This document shows positions 60,914-61,465 of a stretch of DNA of 64,000 nucleotides, in pieces. The stretch spans positions 19,949-83,948 of the forward strand of contig JABDCL010000004.1 of NCBI GenBank assembly GCA_013288135.1, in the 5' to 3' direction. The notes beneath the pieces are model-generated. The model saw nothing but the letters and a program-made list of their open reading frames with translations, did no database searches and was not told the DNA's origin. Within the stretch, counting starts at the first letter, position 1, and each line of letters begins with the position of its first letter. This stretch comes from Gammaproteobacteria bacterium. GTDB taxonomy: Bacteria > Pseudomonadota > Gammaproteobacteria > UBA6186 > Azoamicaceae. A program made the translations under genes and the position numbers.

Positions 60914-61465
60914 ATGACAAAACTAACTAAGCGCCAAAGTGAAGTTTTAAATCTTATTCAAATCCATATGGAAAAAACAGGTTCTCCGCCAACTCGCGCA
61001 GAGATAGCAAAGACCATGGGATTTCGTTCACCCAATGCAGCTGAAGATCATTTAAGAGCTTTAGCCAAAAAAGGTGTTATTGAGTTAATTGCTGGAACTT
61101 CTCGCGGTATTCGATTAATCCAACAAGTTGGCATTCCTGTTCTTTCTGCAGCGGATGAGCTTCAATCTATTGAAAGTGATAGTGATGCTGAACCTCATTG
61201 TCGGGTAGAACGCACCTTGTTTCAACCCAGCATTGATTTTTTTGTGAGAATTAAAAATCAAAATCTTAAAGACATGGGTATCTTGGAAGGCGATTACTTA
61301 GCAGTCCATCGCAGTAATCACGCAGAAAAAGGTCAAGTGGTTGTTTTAAAAGTGGAAGGTGAACTCATTCCTAAACGTTTTTCACCAGACAATCAAACAA
61401 GTCAAATCCTAGAGGGAATTGGGGTTGGTGTTATTCGCCCCTTACTTACCCCTTCTTTACCATGA
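60914..61465 (+). CDS. lexA: LexA-like repressor with degenerate (probably non-cleaving) S24 domain
   Basis: The N-terminal wHTH is near-collinear with E. coli LexA ([27 protein letters not shown]). The GMSMKD Ser is replaced (NQNLKD), VAAG becomes SAAD, and about 24 aa are missing near the C-terminus. Confidence 0.75.

Follow-up and report, generated by a model that had tools for sequence, protein, structure and literature searches.

The switch that defines the SOS response of bacteria is the self-cleavage of LexA, and a gene in the DNA analyzed here raises the question of what role a LexA protein can retain once that switch is gone. The gene occupies positions 60914-61465 of a 64,000-nucleotide stretch (the window) from a gammaproteobacterial genome and encodes an unusually short LexA. 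The evidence assembled below indicates that the short LexA is a selected state found throughout its lineage and not the oddity of a single gene. The reading that we consider likely on the basis of comparative sequence analysis is that the protein acts as a RecA-independent, dimeric autorepressor of a lexA-mnmA-hflD operon, the remnant of an SOS circuit that has been dismantled. The gene and the parts of its product are as follows.

60914-61465, + strand: short lexA gene, 183 amino acids, stop codon included (open reading frame, hidden Markov model (HMM) matches and PDB alignment)
60914-61108, + strand: winged helix-turn-helix DNA-binding domain, amino acids 1-65 (PF01726, Foldseek and the ratio of nonsynonymous to synonymous substitution rates, dN/dS)
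61127-61213, + strand: former cleavage loop and linker, amino acids 72-100, without Ala-Gly and poorly conserved (predicted local distance difference test score, pLDDT, below 50 at residues 80-92)
61214-61462, + strand: S24-like domain, truncated and catalytically dead, amino acids 101-183, the presumed dimerization module

The product scored 141.7 bits against TIGR00498, the NCBIfam lexA equivalog model (cut-off 110.95), with a match ending at model position 168 of 203, and its best PDB matches were E. coli LexA structures (HMMER; E = 1e-46 for 1jhf). On these matches, it is an orthologue of E. coli LexA. The winged helix-turn-helix, described as intact in the initial annotation of this DNA, was indeed covered in full by PF01726 LexA_DNA_bind (residues 1-65 on model positions 1-65 of 65, 92.6 bits, Pfam) and was 67% identical to 1lea in a Foldseek alignment (template modeling (TM) score 0.91). 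Its wing, TSRGIR, and a 12-residue motif of the same domain are invariant or nearly so across the short-LexA clade. The N-terminal domain thus appears essentially unaltered with respect to canonical gammaproteobacterial LexA and, being near-unchanged, should still recognize boxes of the CTGT-N8-ACAG type.

The C-terminal part matched PF00717 Peptidase_S24 only over model positions 11-87 of 116 (Pfam). An AlphaFold2 model made with an 88-sequence alignment had a mean pLDDT of 80.7, with both domains confidently predicted and residues 80-92 alone, the disordered former cleavage loop, falling below 50; values for the S24-like domain were 82-92 over most of its length and dropped at the C-terminal tail. 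The best Foldseek matches were again E. coli LexA structures, and the C-terminal domain gave TM scores of 0.65-0.70 to LexA C-terminal domains. Three positions within this domain bear on catalysis.

61262-61264, + strand: codon of Asn117, which takes the place of the E. coli nucleophile Ser119 (HMMER and MAFFT)
61373-61375, + strand: codon of Lys154, the counterpart of the E. coli general base Lys156; kept here, Arg in 62% of the clade
61385-61390, + strand: deletion junction, Pro158/Asp159, where the counterpart of E. coli residues 161-179 is gone

From an alignment made by eye, the initial annotation had reported that the Ala-Gly cleavage site was absent, that Ser119 was replaced by Asn, that the Lys156 equivalent remained and that ∼24 residues of the C-terminal domain were missing. 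HMMER alignment to 1jhf and MAFFT alignments bore out the absences, the substitution and the retained lysine, with two corrections. The register at the cleavage site had been about 2 residues off: E. coli V82-A83-A84-G85 lies opposite A80-D81-E82-L83, which places E82-L83 opposite A84-G85, and no Ala-Gly, Cys-Gly or Gly-Gly dipeptide is present within residues 70-100. The missing segment, for its part, amounts to 19 residues, corresponding to E. coli 161-179 and including a Glu-Asn motif (E. coli 170-171) that is 93% conserved in canonical LexA; EGxxVGVIR, the C-terminal strand, is still there. The Ser-Lys catalytic dyad is incomplete, with Asn117 for Ser119 and Lys154 for Lys156, most members of the clade having Arg or Gln at the latter position. 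The formal alignments placed neither a Ser/Lys dyad nor an Ala-Gly site in register, and the window protein lacks a full S24 domain in which nucleophile, base and the strands that bind the substrate are all present.

The same losses recur among relatives. Within the 120 best matches in a collection of 5.8 billion proteins, 77 homologues of 183-196 amino acids carry the same deletion and have lost the catalytic motifs. Comparison of these 77 short proteins with 42 canonical LexA proteins (E. coli numbering) showed that V82, A83, A84, G85, G117, S119 and M120, each conserved in at least 93% of the canonical set, have become variable, the commonest residue in these columns reaching just 18-36% in the short set. 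At position 119, Ser accounts for 93% of the canonical sequences, and the commonest residue in the short ones for 22%; at position 156, Lys in 95% of the canonical proteins is replaced by Arg in 62% of the short proteins. Columns 161-179 are filled in all canonical proteins and empty in 77/77 short ones, except for column 161, which is filled in one. Common to both sets are F105, P107, D110, I125, G128, D129, A132 and H134, together with Q143, R148, E152, E189, G190, G194, I196 and R197, all of them structural residues in the barrel or the final strand. The C-terminal domain of LexA carries determinants of both dimerization and self-cleavage (PMC3159453). Since the protein keeps barrel and C-terminal strand residues but not the catalytic parts, dimerization would be the function left to this domain, which most likely survives as a dimerization module only.

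The window protein is therefore predicted to be a naturally non-cleavable LexA in which RecA*-stimulated autocleavage is absent, as the initial annotation had proposed; with neither a conserved Ser or Lys at the catalytic positions nor a cleavage motif in the 77 relatives, the comparison supports that proposal. Activated RecA (RecA*) should then be unable to inactivate the short LexA. Dimerization, DNA binding, non-cleavage and a regulatory role are what we infer for the protein from these features.

On a tree of 78 LexA proteins (IQ-TREE), 39 short proteins lay on one side of a single branch with a Shimodaira-Hasegawa-like approximate likelihood ratio test (SH-aLRT) value of 99, and the short clade was placed among gammaproteobacterial LexA. 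This is consistent with a single origin of the short form. When 200 gammaproteobacterial families were sampled, each by a single genome, LexA matches that ended near model position 165 inside a contig were found in the window's own order only. That order consists of a single family, whose 12 genera contain 41 species; LexA is distributed among the genera as follows.

Genera g7 and g8: canonical full-length LexA, ∼240 bits over model positions 1-202, with VAAG, GDSM and TVK intact
Genera g1 (that of the window), g4, g5 and g6: short form
Some of g4, plus g10: an even more degenerate version
Genera g2 and g3 (300-400 kb genomes), g11 and g12: no protein with a LexA N-terminal domain

A sub-lineage consisting of G010, G020 and G022 (loci L103-L105) was seen to carry a more degenerate LexA of 194 amino acids that scores ∼102 bits on TIGR00498, below the cut-off. 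The window genome itself was assembled from a metagenome; it measures 1.3 Mb, is AT-rich (37% G+C) and is ∼54% complete. HMM searches and six-frame phmmer revealed no second lexA or S24 gene in the assembled ∼54%.

If the short LexA still binds DNA, its own promoter is the most evident place for it to do so. The elements concerned and the genes that would be governed from them are listed below.

60854-60869, + strand: LexA-type operator CTGGACAACAGCACAG, CTGG-N8-ACAG, matching 7 of 8 core positions of CTGT-N8-ACAG
60855-60883, + strand: sigma-70-like promoter, TGGACA, 17-nucleotide spacer, TAAGAT (consensus match only, 9/12; position kept in relatives)
61462-62658, + strand: mnmA (tRNA 2-thiouridylase), start overlapping the lexA stop by 4 nucleotides, ATGA
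62655-63299, + strand: hflD (DUF489), overlapping the mnmA stop by 4 nucleotides, ATGA

The operator lies 45-60 nucleotides upstream of the lexA start codon, where it shares positions with both the -35 hexamer and the spacer of that gene's promoter. In 16 short-LexA genomes, the 16-mer CTGGACAACAGMACAG was present once per genome with 0-1 mismatch and always 5' of lexA; in G023, the operator has 2 mismatches, and in G020, the site at the lexA locus is cut by the end of the contig. Matches elsewhere with 2 mismatches to CTGGACAACAGMACAG occurred at the level of a reversed-pattern control. An alignment of 22 lexA upstream regions showed the operator to be the sole conserved block besides the ribosome-binding site, and relatives with canonical LexA have CTGGACAnnnnnnCAG at the same position. 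The short LexA would thus bind as a dimer to CTGGACAACAGCACAG, across the -35 element of its own promoter, and negative autoregulation would set or steady the expression of lexA, mnmA and hflD.

The overlap with mnmA, already recorded in the initial annotation, was found as ATGA at 61462-61465. The order lexA-mnmA is kept in 22 of the 24 lexA loci of the order that were tested, canonical and short alike, and an mnmA motif lies within ∼45 nucleotides of the lexA stop in 16 of 19 short-LexA loci; hflD would be the probable third member of the operon. Because the genes overlap and the lexA-mnmA order is conserved, the putative autoregulated lexA promoter probably also drives the housekeeping genes mnmA and hflD. 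Directly upstream of lexA and on the same strand, the window encodes an acidic DUF6763 protein of 103 amino acids (60509-60820, + strand), and the upstream flanks of L089 and L092 seem by eye to end in a gene like this one.

A gene that has lost its catalytic residues and part of its S24 domain, and that overlaps mnmA with probable co-transcription, might simply be a decaying remnant, kept open only because its promoter and frame precede the essential mnmA. The complete loss of lexA in g2, g3, g11 and g12 would fit such decay, as would the pace of change in the C-terminal domain, 4-9 times that of the N-terminal domain. Substitution rates, estimated by the Nei-Gojobori method on pairs with unsaturated synonymous sites (dS 0.25-0.57), speak against it: dN/dS was 0-0.04 for the N-terminal domain, which has ∼40 invariant residues, and 0.09-0.23 for residues 101-183, far under neutrality, compared with 0-0.8 for the former cleavage linker. 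The ratio of C-terminal to N-terminal dN was 4-9 in the short clade versus 1-3 in canonical g8, a comparison limited to dN ratios by saturation of synonymous sites in the canonical clade. Constraint on the C-terminal domain is therefore relaxed yet not lost, and it is still a selected, folded domain. Moreover, none of the 77 database relatives and none of the genome loci examined has an interrupted frame, the same deletion boundaries are found across the whole of an old clade with ∼50% identity between members, and the operator is conserved. We regard decay as very improbable. A pseudogene or an assembly artefact was likewise rejected, on the grounds of clade-wide conservation and dN/dS.

A repressor that could not be cleaved would be expected to spare the genes of the damage response, and the distribution of LexA boxes agrees with this. 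In all five canonical-LexA genomes (g7 and g8) with sufficient upstream sequence, recA is preceded by a CTGTAAnnnnTTCCAG box (CTGT-N8-CCAG) at -81 to -103. With one mismatch allowed at every inner position of the search pattern, no such box was found within 300 nucleotides upstream of recA in any of 17 short-LexA genomes, that of the window included, and it was also missing from five genomes of g12, a genus without lexA. In the window genome, recA is intact (563 bits) but has no LexA box. The umuD-umuC genes follow the same pattern: a box sits at the start of umuD or immediately ahead of it in 5/5 canonical-LexA genomes (g7 and g8) and in 0/6 short-LexA genomes. Loss of cleavage thus goes together with release of recA and umuDC from LexA control, as is biologically plausible given that an uninducible repressor on recA would be harmful; at genes without LexA boxes, a permanent repressor would be harmless.

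A classical SOS regulon in the window genome was rejected: recA lacks a box, no Y-family polymerase gene was found in the assembled part of the genome, and the genes beside the best-scoring boxes are not repair genes, ten of these genes having been judged by eye without an HMM search. The short LexA is, on the distribution of these sites, probably no longer an SOS repressor.

Other boxes are nevertheless present, and the suggestion in the initial annotation that the protein should bind SOS boxes gains support from their placement as well as from the conserved 16-bp LexA-type operator at its own promoter. In the window genome, 6 of the 11 perfect CTGT-N8-ACAG boxes are intergenic, versus 13 of 229 composition-matched palindromes; the sites closest to the E. 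coli 20-mer consensus are also mostly intergenic, which is partly a composition effect. The two best-scoring sites of the genome are TACTGTATTAATATACAGAA (C2:173054-173073, outside the window), 18-20 nucleotides before a YhcG/DUF1016 PDDEXK nuclease gene (C2:173091-174170), and TTCTGTATAAAAAAACAGTA, 28-30 nucleotides before an AAA_14/DUF4143 ATPase gene. The YhcG nuclease and AAA_14/DUF4143 genes may be further targets of the short LexA.

In the same genome, outside the window, LexA-type boxes at C6:10080-10099 and C6:82091-82110 precede two paralogous AAA_14 and DUF4143 ATPase genes; CTGTAYAAAAAAACAG, associated with AAA_14/DUF4143, recurs in relatives, including beside the lexA promoter box of G010 (C41:9788-9803); and a perfect CTGT-N8-ACAG box, CTGTACTGATATACAG, at C5:27624-27639 covers codons 5-10 of a gene for an rpoH-like sigma factor (C5:27610-28500).

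These sites raise the alternative that the short LexA has been re-purposed as the regulator of a new, non-SOS regulon of accessory, mobile or stress genes, of which autoregulation is one part. The intergenic enrichment would fit, as would the strong boxes before the YhcG-type nuclease and the two AAA_14/DUF4143 genes and the one over the rpoH-like start. Box counts also exceed the reversed-pattern control, modestly across the short-LexA genomes (324 versus 223) and markedly in G010, G020 and G022 (59 perfect boxes versus 13), and a role outside the SOS response has a precedent in LexA of Synechocystis (PMC3091678, PMC1524924). On the other side, the intergenic bias of AT-rich boxes is partly a matter of base composition, no coherent functional theme emerges, and the candidate targets are not conserved in relatives. 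The yhcG genes of G024 (L123) and G030 (L116) have a box and most other copies do not, and the yhcG box was rejected as a conserved regulon member, being present at 3 of ∼29 yhcG loci in the order. A regulon of this kind appears quite unlikely.

In some relatives, UmuD itself is altered. In most of the short-LexA genera (g4, g6 and g9), it is 181-201 amino acids long and has a conserved N-terminal extension of ∼70 residues (GGxRxGxGRPKGxGK..IRVP). The loci examined were as follows.

L107, 1288-1878: extended umuD
L108, 1258-1863: extended umuD, with umuC directly 3'
L109, 1348-1893: extended umuD
L110, 1300-1878: extended umuD
L111, 1264-1863: extended umuD

The Ala-Gly site and the conserved Lys are intact in these proteins, and the G(D/N)SM motif with the Ser is present in 4 of the 5; the two that were scanned scored 171-176 bits on the UmuD subfamily model. 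No LexA box was found near the extended umuD loci. UmuD of the canonical-LexA genera has the usual size (129-147 amino acids), and its gene has a LexA box. No extended umuD was seen in the window genome, about half of which is assembled. The extended proteins look like UmuDAb of Acinetobacter, a repressor derived from UmuD in a genus that lacks LexA (PMC4807011), and suggest that in this lineage the control of umuDC in response to damage may have passed to UmuD.

The extended UmuD proteins also bear on whether the short LexA might still be inactivated after DNA damage by another route, such as cleavage in trans by a cleavage-competent S24 protein, proteolysis by Lon or ClpXP, titration by RecA* with no cleavage or an anti-repressor. 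In favor of such a route, recA is intact in the window genome, and many relatives encode an extended UmuD with intact Ala-Gly, Ser and Lys. Precedents exist in the S119A form of LexA, which is non-cleavable but still binds RecA* (PMC3159453), and in CI of coliphage 186, which has an S24-like domain without the canonical active site (PMC12984324). The linker, however, contains no conserved motif for a trans-acting protease, the assembled part of the genome encodes no second S24 protein, and the loss of the recA and umuDC boxes argues that damage-dependent release is no longer needed. We know of no anti-repressor for the short LexA. Inactivation of the repressor by any of these means is judged unlikely.

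The observations on LexA and UmuD could be joined in a single linked rewiring, in which self-cleavage of LexA disappeared a single time and the protein persisted as an autorepressor of lexA-mnmA-hflD that is blind to RecA, the recA and umuDC boxes were lost, and, in most of the same genera, UmuD acquired its conserved N-terminal extension of ∼70 residues, like that of UmuDAb of Acinetobacter, and took over the damage-inducible control of umuDC. We put this forward tentatively, as a possible but doubtful sequence of events. If true, it would represent a second, independent origin of an SOS repressor derived from UmuD, alongside the fossil of the LexA that it replaced.

Several findings weigh against a RecA-independent autorepressor of the lexA-mnmA-hflD operon, the reading preferred here. 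Lys154 is retained in the window protein, and the missing part of the ∼54% complete genome could hold a second, cleavable LexA or S24 protein. At the DNA level, the lexA operator is an imperfect box (CTGG-N8-ACAG), and the conserved 16-mer overlaps the -35-like hexamer, such that its conservation may partly reflect the promoter. The window genome contains 11 perfect CTGT-N8-ACAG boxes versus ∼15 estimated from base composition, and the additional candidate targets are not conserved among relatives, as the count for yhcG illustrates.

The lineage belongs to the Azoamicaceae of order UBA6186 (“Candidatus Azoamicales”), for which genomes of 284-373 kb have been reported in a paper that does not mention LexA (PMC11549363). 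Literature searches returned no description of a LexA of the short type in endosymbionts or Legionellales-like bacteria. Open reading frames that by eye resemble ankyrin-repeat or other effector genes were seen at 63569-64000 (- strand) of the window and at C1:319788-321761 of the same genome and, together with the 300-400 kb members of the order, suggest an intracellular lifestyle. Public databases name the short proteins “transcriptional repressor LexA,” an annotation from which one would wrongly conclude that the SOS response of these bacteria is functional.

What the locus offers is a lineage that dropped the switch and kept the repressor under strong selection, allowing the stepwise dismantling of a stress regulon to be seen. 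The comparison is clean because sister genera retain canonical LexA and intact boxes. A natural minimal LexA, made up of the DNA-binding domain and a reduced, presumed dimerization domain, could, in addition, reveal the parts of the S24 fold that dimerization by itself requires.

Compared with E. coli LexA (1JHH, 3JSO), the short protein has the same two-domain fold, the same recognition-helix motif, SPNAAE(E/D)HL, and a box at its own promoter. It differs in lacking Ala84-Gly85, in having Asn in place of Ser119, in the deletion of 161-179, in the absence of recA and umuDC boxes and in its predicted blindness to RecA*. The engineered E. coli LexA(Ind-) variants S119A, K156A and G85D bind operators and dimerize but are uncleaved, which is the behavior expected of the short LexA from its sequence. 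These variants block SOS induction in E. coli and are harmful after damage, whereas in the present lineage recA and umuDC escape.

The closest precedent, LexA of Synechocystis sp. PCC 6803, is also a natural LexA that has lost the Ala-Gly site and the Ser nucleophile, having Gly-Gly for Ala-Gly and Asp for Ser, and is thought not to control the SOS response (PMC3091678, PMC1524924). The window protein shares the absence of Ala-Gly, the absence of Ser and SOS genes that are probably not under its control, which makes the two members of one functional class, not of one phylogenetic family. The Synechocystis case concerns one strain of an unrelated phylum and point substitutions; here, an order-level clade shares a deletion of 19 amino acids. 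Coliphage 186 CI resembles the short LexA in its S24/LexA-like fold without the canonical active site but is a phage repressor with another N-terminal domain (PMC12984324). In Acinetobacter, the damage response has been rewired from LexA to an N-terminally extended UmuD, UmuDAb (PMC4807011, PMC11332147), and relatives of the window genome encode UmuD proteins with a comparable extension; UmuDAb, however, is cleavable and is not a LexA orthologue, and Acinetobacter has no lexA, whereas the window lineage keeps a dead one. What is new with respect to these known cases is the shared deletion of part of the catalytic core, its spread at the level of an order and its occurrence side by side with sister genera in which the full circuit is retained.

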